The translations under genes were made by a program, and so were the position numbers. 21,296 nt of DNA from the IMG/VR virus record IMGVR_UViG_2695420380_000006. One strand, 5' to 3'. Origin of the DNA: a virus. Its lineage: Duplodnaviria > Heunggongvirae > Uroviricota > Caudoviricetes. The notes below the pieces were generated by a model, which ran no database searches, had not been told where the DNA came from, and saw nothing but the letters and a program-made list of their open reading frames with translations. Shown piece by piece: positions 320-21,296 of the stretch. The stretch's first letter is position 1; the number at the start of each line of letters is the position of its first letter.

Positions 320-648
320 CAGTTCACCACCTGTTCAAACTCTGCGCTGAACTCAACACGCAGCATACTGACCCGCGACGACCATTTTGCGCAGGTCACC
401 TTTATCTGCCGCCACTCATAAGGCGGCGTCCACAGAAAGGCTTTCCAGCCCCCGTGCTCTTCCAGAAACGACTCCAGTACCATGGCCTCCTCACGGGGGA
501 CAGAAAGCGTCACGCTGTACGTTTTCAGGTTGGCATTCAGCCCGGCAGGCGCTCGCTGGGAATAGCCATCACCAAAGCGCACCTTTCTTACAGAAGGGGC
601 CGAAGCCACATCCATACCGGGTTTCACTTTCCAGCGGAAGGTTTTCAT
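319..648 (-). CDS. M: Minor tail protein M (lambda gpM-like)
   Basis: 109-aa ORF (MKTFRWKVKPGMDVASAPSVRKVRFGDGYSQ...) of gpM size, sitting between H and L in lambda order; its ATG overlaps the H stop (ATGA). Confidence 0.85.
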   Translation of the reverse strand: MKTFRWKVKPGMDVASAPSVRKVRFGDGYSQRAPAGLNANLKTYSVTLSVPREEAMVLESFLEEHGGWKAFLWTPPYEWRQIKVTCAKWSSRVSMLRVEFSAEFEQVVN

Positions 649-3247
649 CGTCCACCTCCGGAGAACAGGCCACCATCACGCATCTGTGTCTGAATTTCAT
701 CACGGGCACCCTTGCGGGCCATGTCATACACGGCCTTCATCATCTGTGGACCTGGCAGACCATTCGTACCGTCGTTCTGAATCACCACGTGATTGTTCTG
801 ATTAAAATTAATGCCTTCAGCCCGCCGCATCTGCGCCGGACTTCCGGCACCGCCCACATAACCACCTTCCGCATAGCCGCGCATCAGCCGGTAGAGATTC
901 CCCACGCCAATCCGGCTGGTTGCCTCCTTCGTGAAGACAAATTCACCACGGTGAACAATCCCCGCTGGCTCATATTTGCCGCCGGTTCCCGTAAATCCCC
1001 CGGTTGCAAAATGGAATTTCGCCGCAGCGGCCTGAATGGCTGTACCACCTGACGCGGATGCGCCGCCACCAACAGCCCCGNNNNNNNNNNNGCGCTGCCG
1101 ATACTCCCGACTATCCCCACCATCGCCTGCTTCAGAAAAATCTCTGTNNNNNNNNNNNNNNNNATCTCTGTCAGCATGGACAGCACAGAACGGGTGAAAC
1201 CACGCCAGTTCTGTTCGCTGCCGATCAGCATCGCTGCCATATTCTGTGCAATACCGTCAAAGGTCTGCGTGGCCGCGTTTTTAACCTGCGAAAAACTGTC
1301 CGTCGCACTTTCCGCCCACTCGCCCCAGCCGGACTTCATCCCGGCCATCCAGCTTCCACGAAGCTGCTCCTCCGCAGACCAGGTGTTCTTCAGTGCAGAT
1401 GTGGCCTTCGCCAGCGCAGCCGGATTATCACCGTACACCTCACGAAGGCGCTGCTCTTCCGACTCCCGCTGCGCCTGACGGTCGGTGAGTCCGCGGGCTT
1501 TTGCGCTGATTGCCGCCTGCTTCGCGCTCTGCTGCTGTTCAAACCGCGCCGCCTGCTGTGCCAGCTCATTCAGCCGTTTCTGGTGTTCAATCTTGTCGCC
1601 CAGCTCAGCCAGCTGGCGTTTGTACTCCAGCGTTTCTTTCTCATGGGCCAGCAGGGATTTTTCCTGCTCAGATAACTGCCGTTTCGTGGCGGCCTCTTTC
1701 AGGACCACATACTGATTTTCCGCTTTCCATAAATCACGGCGCTGCTGGCTGATTTTTTCATTCGCACCGCTGTGCTTCTCCAGCGTCCTGAGCTCAGTTT
1801 CAAGCGCCAGCAGGGCTGCATGCGCCTGGTCTTCCTGGCGCTCACCGGCAGACACCTTCACACCGGACGGCTTTTTCTGCGTCGACTCATAATCCTTTTT
1901 TGCCGACGCCATCAGCGTGTTGTAATCCGCCTGCAGGATTTTCCCGTCTTTCAGGGCCTTATTCAGCTCTTCCTGCCGGGCGGTATATTTCTCCAGTGGC
2001 GTCAGCAGGCGCTCATACGCCTTCTGCGCCTCTCCGGTATACTTCAGCTGTGACGACTCACGCTCAGCCCTGTCCCTTGCCGCCAGTTCACCGGCTTTTT
2101 CCATATCCGACTGCAGCGTTGCCGCTGCCAGACCCAGACGGGCATTTTCCCGGTCATCCCATGCGCCCTGAAGGTTGGCCCGGAAAGAGGAGGTTTTACC
2201 GCGGCGCTGGCTCCGACTCTGGTACCACTGCCATTTTTTATCCGCCTCATCAAATGCCTTCTGCGCACTGGCGAGCATATCCGCTGAGGATTCCGGACGA
2301 CCGATATCCAGAATGGCATCCCACATCGATTTGAATGCCTTCCCTGTTTTATCCGCCCAGGTCTCCAGTGTTCCCATGTTTTCTTTCAGGCGACGGGTCT
2401 GCTCATCAAAGCCTTTCGTGGCGATATCGTTCGCCGCCTGCAATGCCCCGGCCTCGTCTCCGGAACGCTGCAGCTGTGCAACATACGCAATCTGCTCTGC
2501 CGTCACGTTACGGAACTGGCGCGCCATCGCCATCAGTCCCGACGTCGGGTCAGTGGTCAGCTTCCCGAAGGCTTCAGCGACTTTATCCACCTCCACACCG
2601 GATGCAGACGCAAAACGCGCGACACTCTGGTTGATGGCATCAAACTGTTCACCACCACGCACACCGGCATTCACCAGGGCTGCCAGTGACTCTCTCGCCT
2701 GGTTAAACGTCAGCCCTGCTGCCTGCCCGGCTCTTGAGAGAGTCAGCATACGATCGGCAGTCAGTCCGGACTGATTACCGGAAAGAACCAGGGTTTTATT
2801 AAACGCTGAAAGCGTGGAATCTCCCTGGTACCAGGCGTACACCAGTGCACCTGTCGCCACCGCCAGCGAGGTGACCCCGACCATCGGCAGGGTGATCGCA
2901 TCGGCAAGCCCCCTGAACATGGGGATCATCCCGCCGAAGGAGTCCTTCACCTGACCGCCCTGTTGCAGCAGGATCAGCCAGGGATTCTGACCACCGGCAA
3001 GCTGCGTGGCGATATCCGTAAACTGTGCGGGCAGGGTTCGCATGGCCGCTTTATACTGCCCGACGGAAATCCCGGCTTTTTGTGCAGCCAGCGCCTGGCG
3101 GCTCAGGCCCTGTTCAACAGCACTGGCGGTTTTTCTGGCGTCGGTATCCAGACCTGAAAAATGACGCCTTACCCGGCTCATCTGCTCATCGAAACGGACA
3201 GCATCCAGACTCAGGTCAATAACAAGATCACCAACCGGCTGGGACAT
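645..3247 (-). CDS. H: Tail tape measure protein H (copy 1), interrupted by N runs at 1081-1091 and 1148-1163
   Basis: Track ORF 884-3247 (MSQPVGDLVIDLSLDAVRFDEQM...) is the H body. Track ORF 645-905 (...GNLYRLMRGYAEGGYVG...DEIQTQMRDGGLFSGGGR) is the H C-terminus in another frame, and that frame is open back to 1080 (…GGKYEPAGIVHRGEFVFTKEATSRIGVGNLYRL). The apparent frameshift coincides with the two N runs, so it is very likely artefactual. Confidence 0.8.
925..1080. repeat. 156-bp segment of H copy 1 that is identical to 6876-7031 in H copy 2
   Basis: By base-by-base reading the two segments are identical, whereas adjacent homologous H sequence (1092-1147 vs 7043-7098) shows several mismatches. 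Confidence 0.7.
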
Positions 3248-4099
3248 ATCTCACACCTCCCGGAATCCCCGCTGAAGCCATCATTAATGCGGCATCATCC
3301 ACCATGACATCCGCCACATCCGCAGACGATAAAATATCGCGCCCTCCGTCCCCACCGAACCGGACGCCTCCGGCAAGTCCTGCCGCTTTCTGCATCAGCA
3401 TTTTGTCCTCATCCGGCCTCTCCACCTGCTCTTCCTCATGCCGGGGGACAAGCAGGCTGAAATCAGAGGGATGCATATCCGGATCGCAAAAAAACAGGCT
3501 GAGTACAGCGTACGTCAGCCCGGAAAAATGCATATCCAGCTGGGTATCCTGAAAATAATGCGTGCGGTAAAAACGGCGCCAGTCGGCATATTCGGTGGAT
3601 GTCATCCCGGCAAGCATGGCGCGCCAGTCGGGTCTCCCCATCTCACGCGCCAGTCTGAGGGCAAAGTTCAGCTCGCCGTCGAAGACTTTCCCGCAGAAAA
3701 ATCATCATCAGTCAGCGTGTTATTTTTCGCCACTTCAGTAATATCAGTATCCGGACGAACAGCTTCGATCATCCCGGACAGGCACAACACCACGTCTTCC
3801 GCCCGGGCAATGGCATCGGCAGGCCAGGTGGTGAGCACTTCCTGCTCTATCTTCATCACGGCCTCATTCATTGACGGTGACTGCGTTTTCTGTGGATGGT
3901 TATGCCACAGGGACATCGCCACCAGAAACGCGCCGGTTCTGACGAGATCTTCCACGCTTACCTGCAGGTTGCCGCTGGATTCTGCCTGTTCTGCACGCCG
4001 TTTCAGGAGGGCAAGATGCTCGATACGCTGCAGCGCAGACAATTCGGAAAGCGTGACAGACACACCGTTATATTCAAATTGTTCTGTTTTCAGAAACAT
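3228..4099 (-). CDS. T: Tail assembly chaperone G-T fusion (copy 1), made by -1 programmed ribosomal frameshift at 3686-3692
   Basis: The G frame (3668-4099) ends ...DDDFSAGKSSTAS*. The T frame (track ORF 3228-3641) is open upstream to the slippery heptamer. The minus strand reads GCG-GGA-AAG at plus 3686-3692 (ctttccc), the lambda-type G GGA AAG slip site. Confidence 0.75.
3668..4099 (-). CDS. G: Tail assembly chaperone G (copy 1)
   Basis: 143-aa ORF MFLKTEQFEYNGVSVTLSELSALQRIEHL..., lambda gpG-like, in the conserved position between V and T/H. Confidence 0.85.
   Translation of the reverse strand: MFLKTEQFEYNGVSVTLSELSALQRIEHLALLKRRAEQAESSGNLQVSVEDLVRTGAFLVAMSLWHNHPQKTQSPSMNEAVMKIEQEVLTTWPADAIARAEDVVLCLSGMIEAVRPDTDITEVAKNNTLTDDDFSAGKSSTAS
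3686..3692 (-). promoter_or_regulatory. Slippery heptanucleotide G GGA AAG for the G to G-T -1 frameshift (copy 1)
   Basis: Plus-strand ctttccc is minus-strand GGGAAAG, 6 codons before the G stop; the T frame is open from here. Confidence 0.75.
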
Positions 4100-4112
4100 G
4101 TATTACCTCCGT

Positions 4113-4865
4113 TTACCCTGCAGCGCCCGCTTCAGTAACGGTGACTTCAGCCACTGCGGCGAACTGACCATTTCCGCTCACCACAGGGATCTGCACCTTA
4201 CCTGTCGCCACGCCGTTTACCGTAATTGTCATATCTTTCACACTAATGGTGGCTTTCGACGGATCGGCGGAAACCGCTCTGAACGTCTTGTCGGTTGCAC
4301 TTTCCGGCTCAAAAGAAACCGTCAGGGTGGTTGTTTTCCCTTTTGCCACCGTACCGGATGTCGGCGTCACCTTAATCGCACTGACCGGCGTAATTTTGCT
4401 GCGTTCTTCCGCTACAGAAGGTTTACCCACGTTAGTGACTTTCACCGTGCGGGTGATCACTTCTTTCGCCGTCACGGCCTTACCGATACTGCTGACCCAG
4501 CCACGAAACACATCCACCGTGCCATTCGGAAAACGGATTTTATAGGCCCGGACATCGCCGCTTTCAACCCAGCCTATAAGCCCTTTCTGGCCTTCCTCTC
4601 CCGGTTTCCAGGCCAGCGTAAAACTGGTATCACCTGCAGATTTCTGCCCCTGCCCGGTCGCGCTCCAGTCCGCGTCTTCATCATCCAGGTAGTTATCATC
4701 ATAGGATTCAGCCGTCATCTCGCCCGGCGTCAGATCCTTCACCTTAGCCAGTCGCTGCCAGTCATCGTCTGACAACGGGTTTGCATAAGCATCAGCCTTG
4801 CCGTTGTAAACCCACAGAGTGGTACCGGCACCTTTTACCGGCTCCAGGGGATTTGGTGTTGCCAT
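4113..4865 (-). CDS. V: Major tail tube protein V (copy 1)
   Basis: 250-aa [39 protein letters not shown]..., lambda gpV-like including the C-terminal Ig-like region; sits between U and G. Confidence 0.85.
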
Positions 4866-4872
4866 ATCGTCC

Positions 4873-5268
4873 TCACATCTCGTATGTAATGGAATAAGTC
4901 AGATCCGCAGAGCTCCATAACGCCATATCGTCATCACGACGATACTCATAGCCCTGCGTAACCATCGTGGTAATCAGTCCTGCCAGTGCAGGGATCGCAG
5001 TCATCGCCGGATAAATCCGGCTTTCCATCCACTGATCGAGCTCCGAATCAGGTACCTGTGCCGGTAAAAACACCTCAATATGCAGTGTGGCCCGCCAGGT
5101 ATCTGCATCCAGCTCTTCACCGGTATACTCTGCATCCGTCAGATAAACCGCGATCGCAGGAAAATCCTCTTCGTCAAAAACAACGGGGCGACCATCAAAC
5201 AGCGTCGCCCCGTGTTCATGCTGCTCGAGTGCATCCAGCACTGCGGCACGAATGTCAGTGTGTTTCAT
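4873..5268 (-). CDS. U: Tail tube terminator protein U (copy 1)
   Basis: 131-aa [46 protein letters not shown]..., lambda gpU-like; its start overlaps the Z stop. Confidence 0.85.
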
Positions 5269-5840
5269 CGTTTTATCGCAATCCTCAGTTGTTGTTTCAG
5301 CGCGTATGCCAGTTCTTTAGGCAGGCGTTCACGCCGGATACGGTCAACATTCTCATCAAATGCCTGTTTCAGTGGGGCCGCCATCGGGATTTTCACCACC
5401 TGAATGGGAAGGCGATTACGCTTTTTCCTTCCCTTGTCGTCATTGCCCTCCTCATATCTGGCCTGGGGAAGACGTTGCATAACATGCCAGCGCCCATTAT
5501 TTAATCGCTGGATAAATGCCCGCTGATAACGATGCTGACCGGCTTTGAGTATGCTGTTCGGACGACGCCCCAGCATTCTGATCCCCAGCTTAATCACAGG
5601 GAGATCACCGCGGTTAACGATAATTCTGGCATTCGGATTTCTGACCGTCGCCCGTTTCAGTCTGGACCGTTCCTTTACCAGTTTCCGTCTCACCCTGGTT
5701 TCCCGGGCAACCTGTGACGAAGACTGATTAATCGCCGTTGTGGCCACGCGGTTAATGGTCATTGCAGAAGCAGCCGGAATGGCGTTTTTACGAACCCGGC
5801 TCAGATTGTCAATCGCCTGATCAAGCCCTTTTATCGCCAT
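5265..5840 (-). CDS. Z: Tail completion protein Z (copy 1)
   Basis: 191-aa ORF MAIKGLDQAIDNLSRVRKNAIPAASAMTINRVA..., lambda gpZ-like. Confidence 0.85.
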   Translation of the reverse strand: MAIKGLDQAIDNLSRVRKNAIPAASAMTINRVATTAINQSSSQVARETRVRRKLVKERSRLKRATVRNPNARIIVNRGDLPVIKLGIRMLGRRPNSILKAGQHRYQRAFIQRLNNGRWHVMQRLPQARYEEGNDDKGRKKRNRLPIQVVKIPMAAPLKQAFDENVDRIRRERLPKELAYALKQQLRIAIKR

Positions 5841-5854
5841 AATTCACCCTGCGT

Positions 5855-5929
5855 TTATCGTCGCCGGTTAACTGCGGGTGGTTGCCCACGGTTGAGCCAG
5901 AGATAACAGCTGCCCCCGTCATCCGGAGA
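5855..5929 (-). pseudogene. FII: FII-like (head-tail joining) gene remnant; only the last ~24 codons remain, 5' part replaced by the IS element
   Basis: Minus-strand translation of 5929-5855 gives ...SPDDGGSCYLWLNRGQPPAVNRRR*, which parallels the C-terminus of the intact FII at 11734-12087 (...SPDDGGSCHLWLGRGVPPAVNRRR*). The reading frame runs directly into the IS terminus at 5930. Confidence 0.7.
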
Positions 5930-6874
5930 TGTCAGCGCCAGTGATATAAGACGGTAATTCGCCATTTGGATTGTCCGCTCCACCCAACATGTTGTTTCCT
6001 TAAGGTTCTCACACCAGAAAGGACATCAACATGCTGAGCAGAGAGGACTTTTACATGATAAAGCAAATGCGCCAGCAGGGCGCGTACATCGTCGATATTG
6101 CGACTCAGATTGGTTGCTCTGAACGGACGGTCAGACGCTACCTCAAATACCCTGAACCGCCAGCCAGAAAGACCCGCCACAAAATGGTTAAGCTGAAACC
6201 GTTTATGGATTACATCGACATGCGCCTGGCAGAGAATGTCTGGAATAGCGAGGTTATCTTCGCGGAGATTAAGGCAATGGGTTATACGGGCGGACGTTCC
6301 ATGCTGCGTTACTACATCCAGCCCAAACGTAAAATGCGTCCGTCAAAAAGAACAGTTCGCTTCGAAACTCAGCCTGGATACCAGCTCCAGCATGACTGGG
6401 GCGAAGTTGAGGTGGAGGTTGCCGGGCAACGGTGCAAAGTTAACTTGGCGGTTAATACGCTGGGGTTCTCCCGCAGCTTCCATGTCTTCGCCGCACCAAA
6501 ACAGGATGCTGAGCATACCTACGAATCACTGGTTCGCGCCTTCCGCTACTTCGGTGGTTGTGTGAAAACGGTGCTGGTTGATAACCAGAAGGCTGCGGTG
6601 CTGAAGAATAACAACGGGAAAGTCGTGTTCAACTCCGGATTCCTGTTGCTGGCTGACCACTATAACTTCCTGCCACGGGCATGCCGTCCACGCAGGGCCA
6701 GAACAAAAGGTAAGGTTGAGCGGATGGTGAAATACCTCAAGGAGAACTTCTTCGTCCGGTACCGCAGGTTCGACAGCTTCACTCATGTCAATCAACAACT
6801 GGAGCAATGGATAGCCGATGTGGCTGACAAACGGGAGCTTCGCCAGTTCAAAGAAACGCCGGAACAGCGCTTCG
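5930..6874 (+). mobile_element. IS21-family (IS100-like) insertion sequence, 5' fragment only (left terminus plus truncated istA); no istB or right terminus
   Basis: Begins TGTCAGCGCCAGTG... immediately after the FII remnant. Encodes the first ~281 codons of an IstA-type transposase and ends at the ambiguous base 6875, where H-homologous sequence starts. IS100-like assignment is from recalled IstA sequence, not a search. Confidence 0.7.
6031..6874 (+). pseudogene. istA: IS21-family transposase IstA, 3'-truncated
   Basis: Track ORF 6031-6885 (MLSREDFYMIKQMRQQGAYIVDIATQIGCSERTVRRYLKY...QFKETPEQRF) has an HTH N-terminus and an IS21/IS100-type IstA body. Full-length IstA is about 340 aa as I recall it, and here the frame is cut at the 6875 junction. 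Confidence 0.75.
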
Positions 6875-6875
6875 N

Positions 6876-7031
6876 TCCTTCGTGAAGACAAATTCACCAC
6901 GGTGAACAATCCCCGCTGGCTCATATTTGCCGCCGGTTCCCGTAAATCCCCCGGTTGCAAAATGGAATTTCGCCGCAGCGGCCTGAATGGCTGTACCACC
7001 TGACGCGGATGCGCCGCCACCAACAGCCCCG
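6876..7031. repeat. 156-bp segment of H copy 2 that is identical to 925-1080; begins right after the ambiguous junction base
   Basis: See 925-1080. Confidence 0.7.
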
Positions 7032-9157
7032 CCAATGGCGCTGCCGATACTCCCGACAATCCCCACCATTGCCTGCTTAAGCAGAATTTCTGTCATCATG
7101 GACAGCACGGAGCGGGTGAAGCTGCGCCAGTTCTGTTCACTGCCGGTCAGCATCGCCGCCATATTCTGTGCAATACCATCAAAGGTCTGCGTGGCTGCAC
7201 TTTTAACCTGTGACATACTGTCCGTGGCGCTCTCTTCCCACTCACTCCAGCCGGACTTCAGGCCTGCCATCCAGCTCCCGCGAAGCTGGTCTTCAGCCGC
7301 CCAGGTCTTTTTCTGCTCTGACATGACGTTATTCAGCGCCAGAGGATTATCGCCATACTGTTCCTTCAGGCGCTGTTCCGTGGCTTCCCGCGCTGCCTGC
7401 CGGTCAGTCAGCCCCCGGTTTTTCGCATCAATGGCTGCCCGTTTTGCCCGTTGCTGCTGTGCGAATTTATCCGCCTGCTGCGCCAGCGCATTCAGGTGCT
7501 CCTGATACGTAACCTTGTCACCAAGTGCAGCCAGCTGGCGTTTGTACTCCAGCGTCTCGTCTTTATGCGCCAGCAGGGATTTCTCCTGTGCGGACAGCTG
7601 GCGACGTTGTGCCGCCTCCTCCAGTACCGCGAACTGACTTTCTGCCTTCCACAAATCCCGGCGCTGCTGGCTGATTTTCTCATTCGCTCCGGCATGCTTC
7701 TCCAGCGTCCGGAGTTCTGCCTGAAGCGTCAGCAGGGCCGCATGAGCACTGTCTTCCTGACGATCGCCCGCATACACCTTCACGCCGGACTGTTTCGGCT
7801 TTTTCAGCGTCGCTTCATAATCCTTTTTCGCCGCCGCCATCAGCGTGTTGTAATCTGCCTGCAGGATTTTTCCGTCTTTCAGTGCCTTGTTCAGTTCTTC
7901 CTGACGGGCGGTATATTTCTCCAGCGGCGTCTGCAGCCGTTCGTAAGCCTTCTGCGCCTCTTCGGTATATTTCAGCCGTGACGCTTCGGTATCGCTCTGC
8001 TGCTGCGCTTTTTTGTCCTGTTGACGCTGTTGATCTACCCTCTTTTGGGCTGCATCCCGCTCCAGGCGTTTTTTTTCACGATCATCCCAGTAACGCGCCC
8101 GTGCTTCATCGTTAACGAAATAATCATCCTTGCGCAGATTCCAGATGTCGTCTGCTTTCTTAAACGCAGCCTCTGCCTTAATCAGCATCTCCTGCGCGGT
8201 ATTAGGACGACCAATATCCAGCACCGCATCCCACATGGATTTGAATGCACGTGCAGTCCTGTCTGCCCAGGTCTCCAGCGTGCCCATGTTCTCTTTCAGG
8301 CGGCGGGTCTGGTCATCAAACCCTTTCGTTGCGGCCTCGTTCGCCGCCTGCAATGCCCCGGCTTCATCGCCGGAACGCTGCAACTGAGCAACATACGCAA
8401 TCTGCTCCGCCGTCACGTTATGGAACTGGCGTGCCATCGCCGTCAGCCCCGACGTCGGGTCTGTGGTCAGCTTCCCGAAGGCTTCAGCGACCTTGTCCAC
8501 CTCCACGCCGGATGCAGAGGAGAAACGCGCCACACTCTGGCTGATGGACGCAATCTGAGCCTCACCGCTTACCCCCGCCTTAACCAGTGCGCTGAGTGAC
8601 TCGCTGGTCTGGTTAAACGTCAGCCCTGCCGCCTGCCCGGCTCTGGACAGGACCAGCATACGATCTGCCGTCAGTCCCGCCTGATTACCGGAAAGGACCA
8701 GCGTTTTGTTGAAATCGGACAGGGTTGAGTTGCCCTGATACCAGGCATACGCCAGCGCACCGGTCGCCACCGCCAGCGAGGTGGCCCCCACCATCGGCAG
8801 GGTGATCGCGCCGGCAAGCCCCCTGAACATGGGGATCATCCCGCCGAAGGAGTCCTTAACCTGACCACCCTGTTGCAGCAGGATCAGCCAGGGATTCTGC
8901 CCCCCTGCAAGCTGCGTGGCCACGTCGGTGAACTGTGCAGGCAGCATACGCATGGCGGCTTTATACTGCCCGACGGAAATCCCCGCTTTCTGTGCAGCCA
9001 GCGCCTGTCGGCTCAGCGACTGTTCAACGACTGCCGCTGTTTTTTTCGCATCACTTTCCGTACCGGAAAAATGACGCCTGACTCTGGCCATCTGCTCGTC
9101 AAATCTGGCCGCATCCAGACTCAAATCAACGACCAGATCGCCTACCGGTTCAGCCAT
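6876..9157 (-). CDS. H: Tail tape measure protein H (copy 2, lambda-like), 3'-truncated at the 6875 junction
   Basis: Track ORF 6848-9157 (MAEPVGDLVVDLSLDAARFDEQMARVRRHFSG...GGKYEPAGIVHRGEFVFTK) follows lambda gpH as I recall it up to the junction. The last ~90 codons present in copy 1 (645-924) are missing. Confidence 0.8.
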
Positions 9158-9988
9158 ACCGGACTCCTCCTGCGATCCCTTCTGATACTGTCATCAGCAT
9201 TACGTCATCCTCCGTCATGTCCGCCACATCCGGGGAAGCGGGGATAACTTCATTCCCGTCCGGGCCAAAGCGGACACCTCCGGCAAGCCCTGCCGCTTTC
9301 TGCATCAGCACATCATCTTCAGGCTCTTCGTCAGCCTCGCGCCGGTTCAGCAGACTGAAATCCAGCGGATGCATCTCCGGATCGCTGAAAAACAGGCTGA
9401 GCACGGTGTACGTCAGCCCGGAAAAGTGCATATCCAGCAGAACATCATGAAAATAATGGGTACTGTAAAAGCGGTGCCAGTCGGCATACTCCGTGGATGA
9501 CATCCCGGCAAGCATGGCGCGCCAGTCGGGTCGCCCCATCTCACGCGCCAGTTTCAGGGCAAAACTCAGCTCACCGTCGAACACTTTCCCGCAGAAACAG
9601 GCTCTGCAGGCCCGGCGTCCTCTGCCTGTTCAGGAGCATCATTCACCACAAACTCATACATACCGGACAGCCGGTACACCACGTTTTCAGCATGAGAAAT
9701 TGCCTCTGTGGGCCAGGTGGTAAGCACTTCCTGCTCAATCTGTTTAACGGCTTCATTCATGGACGGCATCTGCGTCTTCTTCGGATGGTTATGCCACAGG
9801 GACATCGCAACCACAAAAGCGCCGGTTCTGATGGCGTCTTCCACAGTAAACTTCCGGTTGCTGTCTGACTCCGCCTGTTCTGCCTGCCGTTTCATCAGGT
9901 CGAGATGCTCAATACGCTGCAGGGCTGACAGTTCAGAAAGCGTGACGGTCACACCGTTATGTTCAAATGATTCGGTTTTCAGGAACAT
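9150..9988 (-). CDS. T: Tail assembly chaperone G-T fusion (copy 2), made by -1 programmed frameshift at 9584-9590
   Basis: G frame 9566-9988, T frame track ORF 9150-9584; plus-strand ctttccc at 9584-9590 is minus-strand GGGAAAG. Confidence 0.75.
9566..9988 (-). CDS. G: Tail assembly chaperone G (copy 2)
   Basis: 140-aa ORF MFLKTESFEHNGVTVTLSELSALQRIEHLDLMKR..., lambda gpG-like. Confidence 0.85.
   Translation of the reverse strand: MFLKTESFEHNGVTVTLSELSALQRIEHLDLMKRQAEQAESDSNRKFTVEDAIRTGAFVVAMSLWHNHPKKTQMPSMNEAVKQIEQEVLTTWPTEAISHAENVVYRLSGMYEFVVNDAPEQAEDAGPAEPVSAGKCSTVS
9584..9590 (-). promoter_or_regulatory. Slippery heptanucleotide G GGA AAG for the G to G-T -1 frameshift (copy 2)
   Basis: Same heptamer and same spacing to the G stop as in copy 1. 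Confidence 0.75.
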
Positions 9989-10003
9989 CGCTGACTCTCC
10001 GGA

Positions 10004-10744
10004 TTAACTGGCGGTGACGTTGATTTCTGCAACCGCAGCAAACTCACCATTACCAGATACGACCGGAATGTTGACCTTGCCTGCAGCAACACCTTTCACG
10101 GTGATGGTCATACCACTGACCGACACGGTGGCTTTTGTTTTATCCGCAGACACCGCACGGAAGCTCTTGTCGGTTGCGCCATCCGGCTGGAATGCCACGG
10201 TCAGCGTGGTGCTCTGCCCTTTCACTACGGAAGCACTGGCGGGTGTCACCGTCATGCCGGTCGTCGCCGTCACCGTGCTGCGATCTTCTGCCATCGACGG
10301 ACGTCCCACATTGGTGACCTTCACCGTGCGGGTAATCACCTCCTTCGCCGTCACCGCCTTACCGATACTGCTGACCCAGCCACGGAACACATCGACCGTG
10401 CCGTTCGGGAAGCGGATTTTATAGGCACGGGTATCACCTTCATTAAACCACGCCAGCAGCGCCTGCTGCCCCTGCTCTCCGGGCATCCACGCCAGCGTGA
10501 AGCTGGTATCTCCGGCAGATTTCTGCCCCTGCCCGGTCGCAGTCCAGTCTGCATCTTCATCATCGAGATAGCTGTCGTCATAGGACTCAGCGGTCAGTTC
10601 GCCGGGCGTCAGGTCTTTAACTTTTGCCAGACGCGACCAGTCAACGTCTGAAAGCGGGTTCGCATAAGGGTCACCGCTCCCCTTATAAACCCACAGGGTG
10701 GTCCCGGCACCTTTCACCGGCATTGTAGGATTTGGTACAGGCAT
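10004..10744 (-). CDS. V: Major tail tube protein V (copy 2, lambda-like)
   Basis: Track ORF 10004-10774; the likely true start is the internal [36 protein letters not shown]..., which matches the lambda gpV N-terminus. Confidence 0.85.
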
Positions 10745-10751
10745 AGCGTCC

Positions 10752-11147
10752 TCACATTTCATAGATAATGACATAAGTCAGATCGGCTGAACTCCACAGG
10801 CCCGCATCATCGTCGCGCCGGTAGTCATAGCCGCTGGCCACCATACTGGTGATCAAATCTGACAGTGCCGGGATATCGCTCATCACCGGATAAATCCGGG
10901 ACTCCATCCACGAATCCAGCTCTGAATCCGGCACCTGAGCAGGCAGGAAAACTTCAATATGCAGCTCCGCCTGCCAGGTATCGCTGTCCAGCTCTTCGCC
11001 CGTGTATTCAGCGCCGGTGAGATAAACGGCAATTGCCGGAAAATCTTCCTCATCAAAAACAGCGGGGCGACCATCAAAAAGCGTCGCCCCGGTGTCATGC
11101 TTCTCCAGTGCATCCAGTACGGCTGCACGGAGTTCAGTATGTTTCAT
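10752..11147 (-). CDS. U: Tail tube terminator protein U (copy 2)
   Basis: 131-aa [46 protein letters not shown]..., lambda gpU-like. Confidence 0.85.
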
Positions 11148-11722
11148 CGCTTTATTACCATTCTCAGTTGATGCTGCAGCGCATAGCCCAGCTCTTTCGG
11201 AAGACGTTCACGCCGTATCCGTTCAATATTCTGTTTAAACGCCGTGGTCAGCGGCACCGCCATCGGGATTTTCACCACATCAATGGGGTAACGGTTTTTC
11301 CCGGCCACACGCTGCATAACATGCCACCGGCCGTTTTTCAGTTGCTGAATAAACGCGCCGGGAATACGACGGTTACCCACCACAAGCACGCTGCCGCCAC
11401 CTTTCAGGGATGAACGCTGCCCCTTTTTATGACGCCTGCGGCGGGACAGGACAACCCGCGCATTACCCAGCTTGATTACGGGCAAATCCCCCCGGTTAAC
11501 TTTGATTCTGGCCTGCGGATTTTTGACCGTGGCCCTTTTCAGCCTGGCCCTTTCCTTTACCAGTTTCCGGCGTACCTTTGTCTCACGGGCAACCTGTGAC
11601 GCAGACTGCGATATCGCGGATGAAGCAACGCGGTTAATGGCCATTGCGGCGGCACCGGGCACCGCCGTTTTGCTGATACGGCTGAGGTTTTCAACGGCCT
11701 GCTCAAGACCTTTTATGGCCAT
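11144..11722 (-). CDS. Z: Tail completion protein Z (copy 2)
   Basis: 192-aa ORF MAIKGLEQAVENLSRISKTAVPGAAAMAINRVA..., lambda gpZ-like. Confidence 0.85.
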   Translation of the reverse strand: MAIKGLEQAVENLSRISKTAVPGAAAMAINRVASSAISQSASQVARETKVRRKLVKERARLKRATVKNPQARIKVNRGDLPVIKLGNARVVLSRRRRHKKGQRSSLKGGGSVLVVGNRRIPGAFIQQLKNGRWHVMQRVAGKNRYPIDVVKIPMAVPLTTAFKQNIERIRRERLPKELGYALQHQLRMVIKR

Positions 11723-11733
11723 ACATCCCCCTT

Positions 11734-12087
11734 TCAGCGGCGACGGTTAACGGCAGGCGGTACGCCCCGTCCAAGCCAGAGATGACAACTTCCGCCATCA
11801 TCCGGCGAAACCCGATCTACCCAGAAATTTTCCTCACCGATGGTCAGCGTGTCTCCACGCCGCAGCTGCCGCACCTCATCAGTCCGGACAAACAGGGACG
11901 GGCTGGAGCCTTCAACGCGCACGCCCTGTCCGGCATAGCTGATATTTTCAGGGTCATCAAAAACACCACGTATCACCGCACCTGACTGCTCACCGGATGT
12001 CATGGTGGCTGACGTTCCCATGTACCCGCGTATCGTTTCATCGGCGCGGGCAATGGCAGCATCGAACAGGTTATCGAAATCAGCCAC
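11734..12087 (-). CDS. FII: Head-tail joining protein FII
   Basis: 117-aa ORF MADFDNLFDAAIARADETIRGYMGTSATMTSGEQSGAVIRGVFDDPENISYAGQGVRVEGS..., lambda gpFII-like. Confidence 0.85.
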   Translation of the reverse strand: MADFDNLFDAAIARADETIRGYMGTSATMTSGEQSGAVIRGVFDDPENISYAGQGVRVEGSSPSLFVRTDEVRQLRRGDTLTIGEENFWVDRVSPDDGGSCHLWLGRGVPPAVNRRR

Positions 12088-12098
12088 AGCGCCTCCCG

Positions 12099-12497
12099 TT
12101 ATTGCATTCTGGCCAGGCCGCGCTCTGTCATTTCGGCTGCCACACCGGCAGAGACACGAAACGCCGTTCCCGGCAGCACAAATGCCACAGGTTTATCCCG
12201 CGTGGCGTGAAGTGCATCAGTATGCAGCGTCACCAGTGCCACGACCGTGACCAGTTCAGCCGTATCCTGAATCACGGTATCCGGCTGCGCTGATACCACC
12301 TCATTTTCATGCCCGGTCAGCACATTTTCCCGGCTGAGAGGGGTGTCCTGACCGGCAGTTTCATCCGTGTCATCAAGCTCTTCTTCCAGCTCTGCCACAC
12401 GAAGCGCCAGTTCTTCTTTCGTTCCCGTCAAACTGACATCGCGGTTCAATTGCTCACCCAGCTCCTGAAGACGGGCAATCAGTTCATCTTTCGTCAT
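12099..12497 (-). CDS. FI: DNA-packaging / head assembly protein FI
   Basis: Track ORF 12099-12536 has a 13-aa N-terminal extension. The internal ATG (MTKDELIARLQELGEQLNRDVSLTGTKEELALRVAEL...) is preceded by GGAGGA with 5-nt spacing and gives a lambda gpFI-like 132-aa product. Confidence 0.8.
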   Translation of the reverse strand: MTKDELIARLQELGEQLNRDVSLTGTKEELALRVAELEEELDDTDETAGQDTPLSRENVLTGHENEVVSAQPDTVIQDTAELVTVVALVTLHTDALHATRDKPVAFVLPGTAFRVSAGVAAEMTERGLARMQ

Positions 12498-12518
12498 GAA
12501 CTCCTCCACAGAGAGAAA

Positions 12519-12536
12519 ATGGCCCCGAAGGGCCAT
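12519..12536 (-). terminator. Intercistronic stem-loop between E and FI: AUGGCCC-UUCG-GGGCCAU on the late mRNA, followed by a U/C-rich tract
   Basis: Perfect 7-bp GC-rich inverted repeat with a UUCG tetraloop, starting 2 nt after the E stop codon and ahead of the FI ribosome-binding site. Confidence 0.5.
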
Positions 12537-12538
12537 GA

Positions 12539-13564
12539 TTACGCCAGTTGAACGGACACGAACTCATCAGGATCAGCCAGCAGCATCAGCGGTGCTGACT
12601 GAATCATGGTGAACTCACGCGCCGGATCGCCGGTGGTCACCCAGTTTTTCGGGTAACGGGCAGAGGCGTTAATGCCTTCGCGCTGTGCGTCCGCATCCTG
12701 AATGCAGCCATAGGTGCGCAGACCGCGAGCCTGAGTGTTCCCCAGCACCATCGTGTTGTCCGGCAGGAAGTTCTTTTTGACGCCGTTTTCCACGTACTGT
12801 CCGGAATACACGACGATGGCCACATCGCCATACATTCCCTTATAGGACACCGCTTTGCCCAGGTCTTTTACCGCTGTCTCCAGCTCGGAATGAGAGCCGC
12901 GACGGGTATCCAGCTTCTCCTTGACGGCTTTGAAGGAACGGAACAGCGCCCAGCCTTTCGGGTCAAACACGATGATATTCACCACACCGCTGGCGTTCAG
13001 CGCGTAGGCTTCGATATCGTCGGTCGGGTCATACGTGGACTTGTCACGCTTGCTCCACTCCGTGACGCCGGACTGTGTGATGTTGTTCGCCGCACTGCGG
13101 CCCATATCCACCTCAACCGGATCGAAGGCTTCACCGGTCATGGTGTATTTGCCCTTGAGCACGGCAGAAACTGCCTGCATCTCTTCGACCTGAGCAATGG
13201 CCAGCTCTTCGTCACGCATGTTCTGCATGATGATGCGACGGCGGCGGTAAGCCGGGTCCGCCAGATTCTGCGGATCTTCATCCGGCAGGCGACGCAGGGT
13301 CATCTGCGGATTCACCTCATGCTTGGGTTTGACATATCCCGGCGTAAATTCAGAGGTGGAGCCGCCACGGGAACGGATAACCTCACCGGAAACAATCGGC
13401 GAAACGTACAGCGCCATGTTTACCAGTCCCGGAATTTGTGAGAGATAGACTTTCTCCGTAGTGAAGGGATAGCTCTCACGGAAAAAGAGACGCAGAAACA
13501 GCGGATCAAACTTAAATTTCTGCTCATTTGCCGCCAGCAGCTGGGCGGTTGTGTACATCGACAT
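12539..13564 (-). CDS. E: Major capsid protein E
   Basis: Track ORF 12539-13591; the likely true start is the internal MSMYTTAQLLAANEQKFKFDPLFLRLFFRESYPFTTEKVYLSQ..., lambda gpE-like. The 9-aa upstream extension overlaps the intergenic hairpin and is unlikely to be translated. Confidence 0.9.
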   Translation of the reverse strand: MSMYTTAQLLAANEQKFKFDPLFLRLFFRESYPFTTEKVYLSQIPGLVNMALYVSPIVSGEVIRSRGGSTSEFTPGYVKPKHEVNPQMTLRRLPDEDPQNLADPAYRRRRIIMQNMRDEELAIAQVEEMQAVSAVLKGKYTMTGEAFDPVEVDMGRSAANNITQSGVTEWSKRDKSTYDPTDDIEAYALNASGVVNIIVFDPKGWALFRSFKAVKEKLDTRRGSHSELETAVKDLGKAVSYKGMYGDVAIVVYSGQYVENGVKKNFLPDNTMVLGNTQARGLRTYGCIQDADAQREGINASARYPKNWVTTGDPAREFTMIQSAPLMLLADPDEFVSVQLA

Positions 13565-13577
13565 AAAAAAATCCCGT

Positions 13578-13599
13578 AAAAAAAGCCGCACAGGCGGCC
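13578..13599 (-). terminator. Intercistronic terminator-like hairpin between D and E: GGCCGC-CUGU-GCGGC followed by U7, then ACGGGA-U7 directly before the E start codon
   Basis: GC stem at 13585-13598 with a T-tract at 13578-13584 on the minus strand; a second T7 run lies at 13565-13571 immediately upstream of the E ATG. Confidence 0.5.
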
Positions 13600-13619
13600 T
13601 TTAGTGATGAAGGGTAAAG

Positions 13620-13765
13620 TTAAACGATGCTGATTGCCGTTCCGGCAAACACGGTCCGTTTTTTCGTCTCGTCNNNNNNNNNNCGTCTCGTCGCTGGCAG
13701 CCTCCGGCCAGAGCACATCCTCATAACGGAACGTGCCGGACTTGTAGAACGTCAGTGTGGTGCTG
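13620..13765 (-). CDS. D: Head decoration protein D, visible C-terminal part only; the 5' part lies in the 282-N run and a 10-N run interrupts the last codons
   Basis: Minus-strand translation of the visible sequence gives ...STTLTFYKSGTFRYEDVLWPEAASDET[N run]DETKKRTVFAGTAISIV*, a lambda gpD-like C-terminus with stop at 13620-13622. Confidence 0.75.
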
Positions 13766-14047
13766 NNNNNNNNNNNNNNNNNNNNNNNNNNNNNNNNNNN
13801 NNNNNNNNNNNNNNNNNNNNNNNNNNNNNNNNNNNNNNNNNNNNNNNNNNNNNNNNNNNNNNNNNNNNNNNNNNNNNNNNNNNNNNNNNNNNNNNNNNNN
13901 NNNNNNNNNNNNNNNNNNNNNNNNNNNNNNNNNNNNNNNNNNNNNNNNNNNNNNNNNNNNNNNNNNNNNNNNNNNNNNNNNNNNNNNNNNNNNNNNNNNN
14001 NNNNNNNNNNNNNNNNNNNNNNNNNNNNNNNNNNNNNNNNNNNNNNN

Positions 14048-14434
14048 CCGGGTTACCTGCAGCCAGCGGTGCCGGTGCCCCCTGCATCAGACGATCCAGC
14101 GCAGTGTCACTGCGCGTCTGTGCACTCTGTGGTGCTGCGGCCAGAATACGGCGGGGCGGNNNNNNNNNNNNNNNNNNNNNNNNNNNNNNGTTTCCACGGT
14201 CATACCGGGGGTTTCGGCCAGCACGCGTGCCTGTTCTTCGCGTCCGTGAGCCTCCTCACAGTTGAGGATCCCCATAATGCGACTGTTTTCTGCCGCAACC
14301 GCTGCGGTGATCTGCGCGTTCACGTCCGGCTGCGCCGCGCTGGCGTTCTCGCCCTCCGTCGCTTGCACCACGCCAGTAACGTCAGCCTGCGAAGCAGTGG
14401 CTGAAACAGTTGTTGATTGAGTCTCTTTGGTCAT
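14048..14434 (-). CDS. Nu3: Scaffolding protein Nu3, nested in-frame in the 3' part of C (internal start at 14434); 3' end masked
   Basis: Internal ATG at 14432-14434 preceded by AGGAGG with 4-nt spacing (minus strand CAGGAGGGCGA-ATG-ACC), giving MTKETQSTTVSATASQADVTGVV... In lambda, Nu3 is the in-frame C-terminal segment of C. Confidence 0.6.
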
Positions 14435-15338
14435 TCGCCCTCCTGAGAGACGGGATTTACGTGCATCCAGTGCATCACGCATGACGGTGATCGCATCGGT
14501 ACTGTTAACAAGTTCATCAGCCAGTCCGGCATCAATGGCCTCCTGACCGCTGTACACTGCAGCCTCGGTATCCAGCACAGCCTGCACGGACAGGCCGGTA
14601 TATGCCGACACCTTCTGTGCAAACATCCGGCGGGTTGCATCCATCCGGGACTGCAATGTTTCCCGGACATCATCCGGTAGATGGCTGTAGGGGTTGCCAT
14701 CCACCTTATGGCTGCCGCTGTAAATCAGCGTGATTTCCACGCCCTGTTTCTCCAGTGCAGCGCCGTAATTACTGTGAGCCATCATGACGCCGATGGAGCC
14801 TGTCCGGGCGGTCTGCGTGACCAGACGCCGGGAGGCGGCACTGGCAAGCAGCTGACCTGCGCTGCAGTTCATGTCATTGGCCAGCGCCCATACCGGCTTT
14901 ATGTCACGCACACGGGCGATGATGTCAGCGCAGTCAAATGCTCCCGCCACCATTCCGCCCGGTGTGTCCATATCGAGCAGAATGCCGTCCACCATCGGGT
15001 CGCTGGCAGCCTGTTGCAGACGGGCAATAATGCCGTTGTAACCGGTCATCCCCGAGTACGGCTGCAGCGCCCGCGTCCGGCTGACCAGCGTGCCGGACAC
15101 CGGCAGCACGGCGATGCCGTTCATTACCTGATAACTGCGGGCCTGTCGTGGTCCGTCATCATCACCGGATAACGCCAGCGCCGCGGGTGCCTCTCCGGCA
15201 GTCAGGCTGTCGCCGGATACTGCATCCGTCAGGCAGCTGATCCCAAGCTGGCCTGCAAGCGCACAAAAGAAAACCCGCGCATAGGCGGGTTCAAGCATCA
15301 GCGGCTCATTAAAAGCCATGCTGGCAATATGCGGGAGA

Positions 15339-15358
<20 letters not shown>
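14048..15358 (-). CDS. C: Capsid assembly protease / scaffold protein C (ClpP-like), GTG start; contains a 30-N run and its 3' end lies in the 282-N run
   Basis: Minus strand reads AGGAGGAGAAGA-GTG-ACAGCAGAG..., i.e. a strong ribosome-binding site then VTAELRNLPHIASMAFNEPLMLEPAYARVFFCALAGQLG..., lambda gpC-like. The C-terminal ...LMQGAPAPLAAGNP is visible at 14049-14087 in a different frame from the body, i.e. across the 30-N run. Confidence 0.8.
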
Positions 15359-19071
<3,713 letters not shown>

Positions 19072-19097
<26 letters not shown>

Positions 19098-19617
19098 TCA
19101 GCAACCCCGGTATCAGTTCATCCAGCGCGGCTGCTTTGTTCATGGCTTTGATGATATCCCGTTTCAGGAAATCAACATGTCGGTTTTCCAGTTCCGGAAA
19201 ACGCCGCTGCACCGACAGGGGGATCCCGTCGAGAATACTGGCAATTTCACCTGCGATCCGCGACAGCACGAAAGTACAGAATGCGGTTTCCACCACTTCA
19301 GCGGAGTCTCTGGCATTTTTCAGCTCCTGTGCGTCGGCCTGCGCACGCGTAAGTCGATGGCGTTCGTACTCAATAGTCCCTGGCTGGAGATCTGTCTCGC
19401 TGGCCTGCCGCAGTTCTTCAACTTCCCGGCGCAGCTTTTCGTTCTCAATTTCAGCATCCCTTTCGGCATACCATCTTATAACGGCGGCAGAGTCATAAAG
19501 CACCTCATTACCCTTGCCACCGCCTCGCAGAACGGGCATTCCCTGTTCCTGCCAGTTCTGAATGGTACGGATACTCGCACCGAAAATGTCAGCCAGCTGC
19601 TTTTTGTTGACTTCCAT
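19072..19617 (-). CDS. Nu1: Terminase small subunit Nu1
   Basis: 181-aa ORF MEVNKKQLADIFGASIRTIQNWQEQGMPVLRGGGKGNEVLYDSAAVIRWYAERDAEIENEKLRRE..., lambda Nu1-like with an N-terminal HTH. Confidence 0.9.
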
Positions 19618-19796
19618 TGTTCATTCCACGGACAAAAACAGAGAAAGGAAACGACAGAGGCCAAAAAGCCCGTTTTCAGCACCTGTCGTTTCCTTTCTTT
19701 TCAGGGGGTGTTTTAAATAAAAACATTAGGTTACGGCGAAGAAGAACGGAAACGCCTTAAACCGGAAAATTGTCATAAATAGCGAAAACCCGCGCG
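19618..19796 (-). promoter_or_regulatory. cos region: cosB (Nu1 binding / IHF region) plus the cosN-equivalent 12-mer at 19785-19796
   Basis: The minus strand upstream of Nu1 reads ...GGGCGGAAGGCG-CGCGGGTTTTCGCTATTTATGACAATTTTCCGGTTTAAGGCGTTTCCGTTCTTCTTCG..., closely resembling the lambda left end as I recall it. The flank on the other side (19797-19950) resembles the lambda right end. Confidence 0.7.
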
Positions 19797-20005
19797 CCTT
19801 CCGCCCCGTAACCTGTCGGATCGCCGGAAAGGACCCGCAAAATGATAATAATTATCATCTACATGTCACAACGTGCATCTACGCCATCAAACCACGTCAA
19901 ATAATCAATTATGACGCAGGTATCGTATTAATTGATCTGCATCAACTTAACGTAAAAACAACTTCAGACAATACAAATCAGCGACACTGAATACAGGGCA
20001 ACCTC

Positions 20006-20239
20006 ATGTCAACGAAGAACAGAACCCGCAGAACAACAACCCGCAACATCCGCTTTCCTAACCAAATGATTGAACAAATTAACATCGCTCTTGTTCAAAA
20101 AGGGTCCGGGAATTTCTCAGCCTGGGTCATTGAAGCCTGCCGCCGGAGACTGTGCTCAGAAAAAAGAGTTTCGCCTGAAGCAAACAAAGAAAAGAGTGAC
20201 ATTACTGAATTGCTCAGAAAACAGGTTAGACCAGATTGA
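20006..20239 (+). CDS. Small basic prophage protein of unknown function; resembles YlcI/YnfO-type (DUF3950-like) proteins found beside cos in lambdoid prophages
   Basis: 77-aa ORF MSTKNRTRRTTTRNIRFPNQMIEQINIALVQKGSGNFSAWVIEACRRRL..., in AT-rich DNA and oriented opposite to the late operon. Family assignment is from memory, not a search. Confidence 0.55.
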   Translation: MSTKNRTRRTTTRNIRFPNQMIEQINIALVQKGSGNFSAWVIEACRRRLCSEKRVSPEANKEKSDITELLRKQVRPD

Positions 20240-20296
20240 AGCAATTTAGATAATCGTGCAGACTACGCCCCCTCATATCACATGGAAGGTACTACA

Positions 20297-20707
20297 ATGG
20301 CTCAGGTTGCCATTTTTAAACAAATATTCGATAAAGTGCGAAATAATTTAAACTATCACTGGTTTTATTCTGAACTAAAACGTCACAATGTCTCACATTA
20401 CATTTACTATTTAGCCACAGAGAATATTCATCTTGTTCTTGAAAACGATAATACGGTTTTAATAAAAGGACAGGGTAAGGTTGTAAATGTAAGATTTTCA
20501 AAAAATAAATGCCTTATAGAAGCCACCTTAAAAGGATTCAAATCAGGAGAGTTATCATTTTACGAATACAGGAAAAATCTTGCTACAGCAGGGGTTTTCA
20601 GATGGATTACAAATATCCACGAAAACAAAAGGTATTACTATACCTTTGATAATTCATTACTCTTTACTGAGAACATACAGAACACTACACAAATATTTCC
20701 GCACTAA
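20297..20707 (+). CDS. Prophage protein of unknown function; resembles YbcV/YdfO-type (DUF1398-like) proteins
   Basis: Track ORF 20282-20707; the likely start is the internal ATG at 20297 ([31 protein letters not shown]...), preceded by GGAAGG about 8 nt upstream. AT-rich codon usage unlike the structural genes. Confidence 0.55.
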
Positions 20708-20963
20708 ATCATAACGTCCGGTTTCTTCCGTGCCAGAACCGGACTCGCTGGCATGATGAAATATGTGTACCCGGTAACCCCGGTGTGCATCGTTTTTGAT
20801 TATTCCCGCACACTCGCGCAGAAGGAGTTCCCCGTCGGGCTACGGTCTCTGTTAATACGGGAATACGGCGACGATACAGCGCATGATGTGTCAGGCTTGA
20901 ATACCTTTATCCGTTAAAAGGGATATCAGTTAAGTTATCCCGTGTAGGGTATAAGCCATTATC

Positions 20964-20990
20964 AAAGCCACTCTGTAGGAAGTGGCTTTT
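20964..20990 (+). terminator. Candidate intrinsic terminator for plus-strand transcripts
   Basis: Stem AAAGCCACT / AGTGGCTTT with an 8-nt loop, followed by TTTTG, about 260 nt downstream of the 20297-20707 ORF. Confidence 0.45.
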
Positions 20991-20997
20991 GTAATGG

Positions 20998-21025
20998 CAA
21001 TAAAAAGCCCCGCGAATGCGAGGCT
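20998..21025 (-). terminator. Candidate intrinsic terminator for minus-strand transcripts entering from the right edge
   Basis: Minus strand reads AGCCUCGC-AUUC-GCGGGGCU (8-bp stem with one G-U pair) followed by UUUUUAUU, about 33 nt downstream of the candidate stop at 21059-21061. Confidence 0.5.
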
Positions 21026-21058: not shown

Positions 21059-21296
21059 TCAACGCAGCCCCTTACCGCGCGCAAAATGCTCAATATCAAG
21101 CATCAGCAATGAGATGTTTAATCTGGATTCACTCCAGAAGTGAGCACCACCCTGTCTACAGAGCCAGATGTGAAGGATGATGAGTAAAATTATCGCTATC
21201 ATCGAAGGCATTGCGTCCTGATGTATTCCTGAAGCGTTCTCAGTGCTGTTTGGTCGCGGATAATTCCGTCCCGGATACCGAGAACGTTTCGTCCAG
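21059..21296 (-). CDS. Possible 3' end of an unidentified minus-strand gene running in from the right edge (79 open codons; 5' end outside the window)
   Basis: The frame is open from the window edge to a TGA at 21059-21061 and is followed by the minus-strand terminator. The sequence (…MPSMIAIILLIILHIWLCRQGGAHFWSESRLNISLLMLDIEHFARGKGLR*) is not recognisable, and two other minus frames are also open for 18 and 31 codons from the edge, so the frame choice is uncertain. Confidence 0.25.
   Translation of the reverse strand, partial: WTKRSRYPGRNYPRPNSTENASGIHQDAMPSMIAIILLIILHIWLCRQGGAHFWSESRLNISLLMLDIEHFARGKGLR

Follow-up and report, generated by a model that had tools for sequence, protein, structure and literature searches.

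Two small protein families, YlcI/YnfO (DUF3950) and YdfO/YbcV (DUF1398), are encoded at the right end of the lambda genome as well as in several cryptic prophages of Escherichia coli K-12 and in most E. coli genomes. In the compact arrangement of the Qin prophage (ynfO-ydfO), a DUF3950 gene beside a Nu1 homologue is followed by a single in-frame TGA, a 57-nucleotide (nt) spacer and a DUF1398 gene. In lambda and in the ylcI-ybcW-ybcV segment of DLP12 the same two families lie between Rz/bor and cos, parted by a segment of ~0.55 kb that carries an opposite-strand ybcW-like gene (lambdap79); the DUF3950 open reading frame (ORF) there is 64 amino acids (aa) long, ends in a different tail and lacks annotation in lambda records, and in lambda the DUF1398 gene (lambdap78) is followed by bor. 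A chromosomal relative, YcgX, is encoded beside bluR, outside any prophage and without a DUF3950 neighbour, in ~94% of E. coli genomes. The locus described here carries one gene of each family on the plus strand (gene 1, 20006..20239, DUF3950; gene 2, 20297..20707, DUF1398) within a 21,296-nt stretch of a Caudoviricetes virus (IMG/VR record IMGVR_UViG_2695420380_000006), hereafter the window, which represents the late region of a lambda-like phage or prophage. The two genes are read, with a probability of roughly one half, as an accessory (moron) cassette in the variable slot between Rz and cos, in which a regulator and a binding protein, each independently promoted, would act on the host.

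Comparison with these described systems revealed that the window shares the compact order of Qin, including the in-frame TGA and the spacer. The DUF3950 proteins are 97% identical, and the spacer, promoter block and PdhR box differ by one or two bases, whereas the DUF1398 proteins are only 76% identical; the Qin prophage is decayed. The orientation and the position relative to Rz and cos are those of lambda and DLP12, with DNA that is 87% identical over the shared parts, but the window contains neither ybcW nor bor. YcgX belongs to the same fold family as the gene 2 product at 44% identity, and its gene retains the same conserved promoter/leader block. A 1.6-kb stretch of the locus matched 4798 of 5426 complete E. 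coli genomes, with at least 80% query coverage in 982, and the genes in these genomes are annotated as 'YlcI/YnfO family protein' and 'DUF1398 domain-containing protein'; the window proteins are identical or nearly so to RefSeq entries carrying those annotations. Phage Kati was 98.5% identical across the whole stretch, and lambda, HK629, HK630 and DE3 matched at 87% with an indel. The window DUF1398 allele is 100% identical to those of E. albertii and phages Kati, Chlobot, ev099 and PhiR49_1. Both genes are known, catalogued family members that also occur in lambda and K-12, and the window adds no new element.

Many occurrences of DUF1398 and DUF3950 in unrelated organisms were found on contigs of ~3.5 kb or 48.5 kb as lambda-type copies of both genes. 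These loci (L012-L033 and L044-L047), together with protein clusters from the ~3.5-kb contigs, include cases assigned to Kitasatospora, Brevibacillus, a 3566-bp Arcanobacterium 'plasmid', Staphylococcus and a spider. These non-enterobacterial occurrences look like contamination with lambda control or spike-in DNA, which inflates the apparent host range of both families.

The original prediction had described two plus-strand ORFs of 77 and 137 aa, the first of them basic, and had noted a resemblance to the YlcI/YnfO and YbcV/YdfO families. Coordinates, basic character and family membership were all borne out, as was the length of the first protein; the second has 136 aa, the stop having been counted among its 137 codons. 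The gene 1 product has a pI of 10.86 with 17 Lys and Arg residues against 8 Asp and Glu. In a hidden Markov model (HMM) search it scored 72.8 bits against PF13132 (DUF3950; cut-off 25) and 35.2 bits against NCBIfam NF041551 (YlcI_YnfO_N; cut-off 30), and it matched phrog_949 at an E-value of 6e-33. The gene 2 product scored 147 bits against PF07166 (DUF1398; cut-off 22) over profile positions 1-119 of 119, is ~80% identical to E. coli YdfO and has the same fold as the nuclear magnetic resonance (NMR) structure of that protein, 2HH8. For gene 2, an upstream in-frame ATG at 20282 was considered as an alternative start. The start at 20297 is favoured because a Shine-Dalgarno-like GGAAGG, read from the plus strand at 20284..20289, lies 7 nt 5' of it, because RefSeq annotates the same start in a 99.1% identical E. 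coli locus, and because homologues begin MAQ/MDQ and the alignment to 2HH8 starts at the methionine of 20297. Both ORFs are real genes under purifying selection and not chance ORFs, as judged from ratios of nonsynonymous to synonymous substitution rates (dN/dS) of 0.21-0.35 for DUF1398 against the Qin, lambda and DLP12 copies and of ~0.06, at a dS of 0.8, for codons 1-50 of DUF3950. When ycgX was compared with its Citrobacter counterpart, dN was 0.13 and dS was saturated.

Base composition and orientation set the two genes apart from the surrounding genome. The GC fraction was 0.369 for 19850-20707 (0.444 in ORF 1, 0.314 in ORF 2) compared with 0.562 for positions 1-19700 of the window, and GC at third codon positions was 0.45 and 0.31, respectively, compared with 0.56 in Nu1 and 0.61 in A. 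The late region is intact in the window and its genes lie on the minus strand. Nu1 occupies 19617..19072 (PF07471, E 2e-101), and A, which encodes the large terminase subunit, 19097..17172. An Rz-like spanin gene, cut by the window end, is represented by its 3' end (21199..21296), which was placed by transferring the annotation of the E. coli D3 locus (99.1% identical, offset 13699). This 3' end is one border of the accessory slot. The other is cosN, the 12-nt cohesive-end segment at 19795..19806, located by alignment to the end of lambda J02459 and to lambda-type loci; the position follows from the last base of J02459 (48502) aligning with window position 19807. The accessory block begins ~45 bp past cosN and gene 1 starts 200 bp inside the right cohesive end. 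The AT-rich block of deviant composition beside cos, antisense to the late operon, is thus as originally described.

The cargo between Rz and cos varies among close relatives while its position is fixed. Among the 29 IMG/VR contigs with the same cos variant, approximately 13 carry both genes and others have different cargo or DUF3950 alone; some phages sharing this variant have nothing in the slot. Alternative cargo comprised a KilA-N-like 165-aa protein with an 85-aa protein (L054, 6309-7060), 141-aa and 105-aa ORFs (L049, 5055-6068) and a 95-aa ORF (L069, 4178-4465). This variability, together with the separability of the two genes detailed below, indicates accessory (moron) behaviour in a recombination-prone slot. 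Furthermore, the lambda copy of DUF1398 (p78) was scored non-essential by CRISPR interference (CRISPRi; CRISPR, clustered regularly interspaced short palindromic repeats) and is dispensable for plaque formation (PMC10695390). Deviant composition, the variable slot and this non-essential lambda gene agree with the earlier proposal that these are acquired accessory genes; judging by the lambda copy, neither gene would be needed for lytic growth. Their role may resemble that of lambda accessory genes like bor and lom, whose composition is likewise deviant and which bring their own expression signals; these genes can be spared in lytic growth and are active in the lysogen. Those genes too lie in or adjoin the late region, and bor is non-essential (PMC10695390). 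However, Bor and Lom are envelope proteins with roles in serum resistance or adhesion, whereas the window proteins are cytoplasmic.

A variable slot that differs in accessory cargo from one related phage to the next, holding AT-rich, prophage-borne genes that are dispensable for lytic growth, would also suit a cassette for anti-phage defence or superinfection exclusion, in which DUF1398 blocks incoming phage and DUF3950 regulates it; accessory slots of this kind often hold defence genes. Defence and exclusion, along with lysogenic conversion, were the candidate roles put forward initially, and none of them gained support. In PADLOC-DB 2.0 there was no match for DUF3950 and only a chance-level match of DUF1398 to Csx23 (E 0.023), and no enzymatic or effector-like fold was found. 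In addition, ycgX with the same promoter block is fixed outside any prophage in ~94% of E. coli chromosomes, and therefore a function in host physiology fits better than phage-specific defence. To our knowledge, lambda lysogens have no reported exclusion phenotype beyond those of rexAB and sieB. Defence is considered unlikely, although it is the most probable of the alternatives weighed here.

The genes had also been described as a pair. They are adjacent in the window, but DUF3950 and DUF1398 are separable modules in relatives, and the linkage was thus overstated. Phage records with DUF3950 numbered 152, those with DUF1398 only 43. No DUF3950 was found within 4 kb of the ycgX-type paralogs (44-53% identity), and distant DUF1398 homologues stand alone in chromosomal contexts; the DUF1398 gene of locus L034 is likewise alone. 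Locus L069 carries DUF3950 without DUF1398, and in a Shiga toxin (Stx) 1 phage a lone DUF3950 gene, again antisense to the late genes, is flanked by Rz and an HNH/HK97-type terminase module, with homology that starts in the start-codon region and unrelated DNA upstream. Divergence of the two genes is also discordant: DUF3950 is 97% identical throughout while the neighbouring DUF1398 is either 100% or 76% identical.

This separability bears directly on the idea of a type II toxin-antitoxin or abortive-infection module, in which DUF3950 would be a ribbon-helix-helix (RHH) antitoxin encoded upstream of the toxin DUF1398. The obligate linkage expected of such a module was not found. A promoter-like block lies between the genes, an opposite-strand gene separates them in lambda and DLP12, where the C-terminal tail of DUF3950 is replaced, and the tail does not covary with the type of DUF1398. 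DUF1398 resembles no known toxin fold, and strong toxicity is disfavoured because YdfO was produced alone for the 2HH8 structure. A toxin-antitoxin function is accordingly rated as very unlikely.

A read-through fusion of the two ORFs, which share a reading frame interrupted only by the TGA (20237-20239) ahead of the spacer (20240-20296), was examined and rejected. Metagenome gene calls include a cluster of 233-aa 'fusion' proteins (P0014, 761 members; loci L083-L085). This cluster appears to be a gene-calling artefact in which TGA was read as Trp, since the contigs carry TGA and translation table 11 gives no fusion. In one locus the frame is lost through an additional C in the spacer, and nineteen stop-free codons are not unusual.

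The accessory reading holds that each gene has its own promotion, and for gene 2 candidate signals were found at the junction of the two genes. Homology of all Escherichia and Citrobacter DUF1398 paralogs reaches ~75 nt 5' of the ATG and ends at a GGTnnnACC box. This promoter/leader block accompanies every one of these paralogs, and the genes are therefore regarded as independently transcribed and separable, yet often juxtaposed. In the window, a PdhR-type box, AACAGGTTAGACCAGAT (20220..20236, plus strand), is located inside the 3' end of gene 1 and directly 5' of the candidate DUF1398 promoter. Two candidate promoters, defined only as consensus matches within 20227..20264, were recognized on the plus strand: TAGACC-16-GATAAT (20227-20254), the best consensus match in the window allele, and TTGAAG-17-CAGACT (20236-20264), the position of which is kept in all paralogs. 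The DUF1398 leader (20255-20300) is unstructured, and less structured than shuffled sequence.

Genomic SELEX (systematic evolution of ligands by exponential enrichment) has located a PdhR box in the ynfO-ydfO interval of Qin and a related one at ybcV/ybcW, and in a pdhR mutant ybcV mRNA was down 10-fold (PMC7660256). The Qin box is the same as that of the window apart from one spacer base (c to t). Expression of ydfO was strongly induced by an ionic liquid (PMC4077768). The window DUF1398 gene is predicted to be transcribed from its own host-regulated promoter overlapping the end of gene 1. The most likely role of both genes would be to adjust host physiology, with expression while the prophage is repressed and with host regulators, PdhR among them, in control.

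With respect to the regulator, DUF3950 proteins consist of an Arg/Thr-rich N-terminal arm, a core (residues ~13-50) and a C-terminal tail. Variation is concentrated in the tail, residues 1-50 being nearly invariant (MSTKNRTRRTTTRNIRFPNQMIEQINIAL.QKGSGNFSAWVIEACRRRL). In an AlphaFold2 model the basic arm is followed by helices at 19-32 and 37-53, with a core predicted local distance difference test score (pLDDT) of about 85. An RHH-like fold had been suggested for this protein. In its favour, hhalign placed DUF3950 residues 13-33 against Arc 10-30 in the expected strand/helix register, at an E-value of 0.042 and a probability of 1.3% (the Arc sequence was checked against 1ARQ). No Pfam RHH model matched any of 13 DUF3950 members at E <= 10, and no RHH match was obtained by a DUF3950 profile search of the PDB or by BLASTP. 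The core probably adopts the RHH fold, judging from the weak but concordant signals of model and register, and the gene 1 product would then be a small dimeric DNA-binding regulator, an RHH domain preceded by an Arg-rich N-terminal arm. It differs from the Arc/Mnt/CopG repressors and antitoxins in having no significant sequence or profile similarity to them and no obligate partner toxin.

Within the 5' coding part of DUF3950, window positions 20019-20052 (ACCCGCAGAACAACAACCCGCAACATCCG) contain two copies of the direct repeat AACCCGCA. This segment is identical even at synonymous sites in otherwise diverged copies (L069, at a dS of 0.8, and the Stx1 phage), which could reflect recent recombination or an overlapping DNA or RNA signal.

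Potential targets of a DNA-binding protein lie between cosN and gene 1. The sequence at 19830..19858 reads as a cosQ-like heptamer, AGGACCC (GGGTCCT on the minus strand), followed by a perfect palindrome, ATGATAAT-A-ATTATCAT (19842-19858), that directly adjoins it. An inverted repeat, ATCAATTATGACG / CGTATTAATTGAT (19904..19936; arms of 13 nt, 85% complementary, 7 nt apart), is positioned 70-100 nt 5' of the DUF3950 start codon. The palindrome and the inverted repeat are both conserved in lambda-type phages; the inverted-repeat region is 98% conserved among lambda-type loci and absent 5' of the Stx-phage DUF3950 gene. Its designation as a candidate operator is speculative.

These elements, the very strong conservation of the DUF3950 core and the constant position of the gene, flanked by Rz and packaging genes whether the terminase is lambda-type or HK97-type, would be explained if DUF3950 were a cos-proximal DNA-binding factor for packaging or for late read-through across cos and DUF1398 were unrelated cargo. 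However, many phages with the same cos and terminase have no DUF3950, and the DNA 5' of the Stx-phage gene is not conserved. The region right of Rz is dispensable in lambda, as is also evident from lambda vector deletions. Its dispensability is likewise documented in PMC10695390. A packaging factor is judged as improbable as a toxin-antitoxin module.

The same stretch gives rise to a further possibility, namely that the genes act at infection and could be expressed while the remainder of the genome has yet to enter the cell, one purpose being to counter host defences. The right cohesive end is at 19807, gene 1 starts 200 bp further in and reads away from it, and both genes fall within 1 kb of the right DNA end, pointing inward. 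In lambda it is the right end that occupies the tail and enters the cell first, and DUF3950 keeps its packaging-site position even with a different terminase type. On the other hand, lambda injection is fast and the positional advantage small, no gene 1 promoter was found upstream, and ycgX and the cryptic-prophage copies are maintained without an infection cycle. Furthermore, CRISPRi knock-down of p78 had no plaquing effect in a laboratory host (PMC10695390). Action at infection thus has a low probability, barely above that of the packaging factor.

The second protein, DUF1398, is built from two copies of a helix-helix-three-strand unit, the halves of which align to each other (hhalign E 0.0012). 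Only L27 and G99 are invariant across the family; there is no conserved acidic, His or Cys set and no Asp/Glu/His/Cys constellation, and the protein contains no hydrophobic segment. A search of BFVD for remote fold relatives was empty at E <= 0.001. The family is narrow, with 189 clusters at 50% identity among 1.84 billion representatives. DUF1398 is thus a soluble, cytoplasmic, internally duplicated orphan fold, and nothing supports its database labels, 'head protein' in phrog_413 and 'putative envelope protein' for lambda p78. As conserved catalytic residues are lacking, DUF1398 is more likely a binder than an enzyme, and most likely acts by binding a host protein or a small ligand. A bolder version of this proposal would combine an RHH regulator at the first-injected end with an orphan pseudo-symmetric binder that sequesters a host or phage factor, together constituting an unrecognized prophage function in host takeover or immunity of which ycgX is a domesticated copy; this is doubtful, being placed below defence and slightly above action at infection.

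Several points weigh against the cassette of a host-regulated regulator and a host-directed binder. Even in a permissive scan, no convincing sigma-70 promoter was detected 5' of 20006, where the original prediction had likewise reported no confident promoter. The link to PdhR comes from genomic SELEX and quantitative PCR for K-12 paralogs only, and the transcript evidence is confined to the K-12 homologues ybcV and ydfO. The view of DUF1398 as a binder derives from the lack of conserved catalytic residues, and the family in which they were sought is shallow; neither family has a phenotype attached to it. The one phenotype claimed in the literature, protection against oxidative stress by YdfO overexpression, is given in PMC4077768 with a citation of Wang et al. 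2010. That paper (PMC3105296) reports oxidative-stress resistance for YfdO of CPS-53 and never mentions ydfO. Because the cited paper names YfdO only, the oxidative-stress role of YdfO was rejected as a mix-up of names; PMC9181523 likewise interchanges ydfO and yfdO.

Regarding the remaining features of the slot, the cohesive end itself reads GGGCGGAAGGCG on the minus (late) strand of the window compared with GGGCGGCGACCT in lambda, and the lambda sequence is retained in relatives with a 99.8% identical large terminase. The variant is natural, given its presence in the 29 contigs. Downstream of DUF1398, a conserved block at 20708-20950 also adjoins cos in phages without both genes (L049, L054) and lies 5' of bor in lambda. 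A 54-aa ORF within it (20753-20917) was rejected as a gene: it has no family match, it is absent from the RefSeq annotation of a 99% identical locus, and its frame is broken in lambda. The block is probably conserved non-coding DNA. Past it, a long imperfect 44-nt hairpin (20955..20998) with an inner stem GCCACU/AGUGGC is followed by UUUUGU; its folding energy (dG) of -24.9 kcal/mol (z -5.6) was not matched by any of 200 shuffled sequences. This hairpin sits between the convergent plus-strand genes and a late-strand terminator, and it likely serves as the transcription stop for the plus-strand genes and is possibly bidirectional. The late-strand element, downstream of Rz, is a terminator-like hairpin with a T-run (21006..21025, minus strand; dG -15.2, z -2.95). 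Structured RNA was also sought, and Rfam at a permissive threshold returned only chance-level hairpin matches. A 50-aa hydrophobic ORF on the minus strand (21059-21211), taken from the ORF list, overlaps the end of the Rz-like gene and has RefSeq relatives annotated as hypothetical protein (WP_001139678.1). Elsewhere in the window, runs of N total 515 bases (1081-1091, 1148-1163, 6875, 13674-13683, 13766-14047, 14160-14189 and 15391-15555); the apparent dips in GC near 13.6-14.2 kb and 15.2-15.8 kb are due to this masked sequence and are not AT-rich islands.

Taken as accessory genes of lambda-like prophages, DUF3950 and DUF1398 are best studied separately, being separable modules. A function for either would close a gap in the understanding of one of the most thoroughly studied phages.

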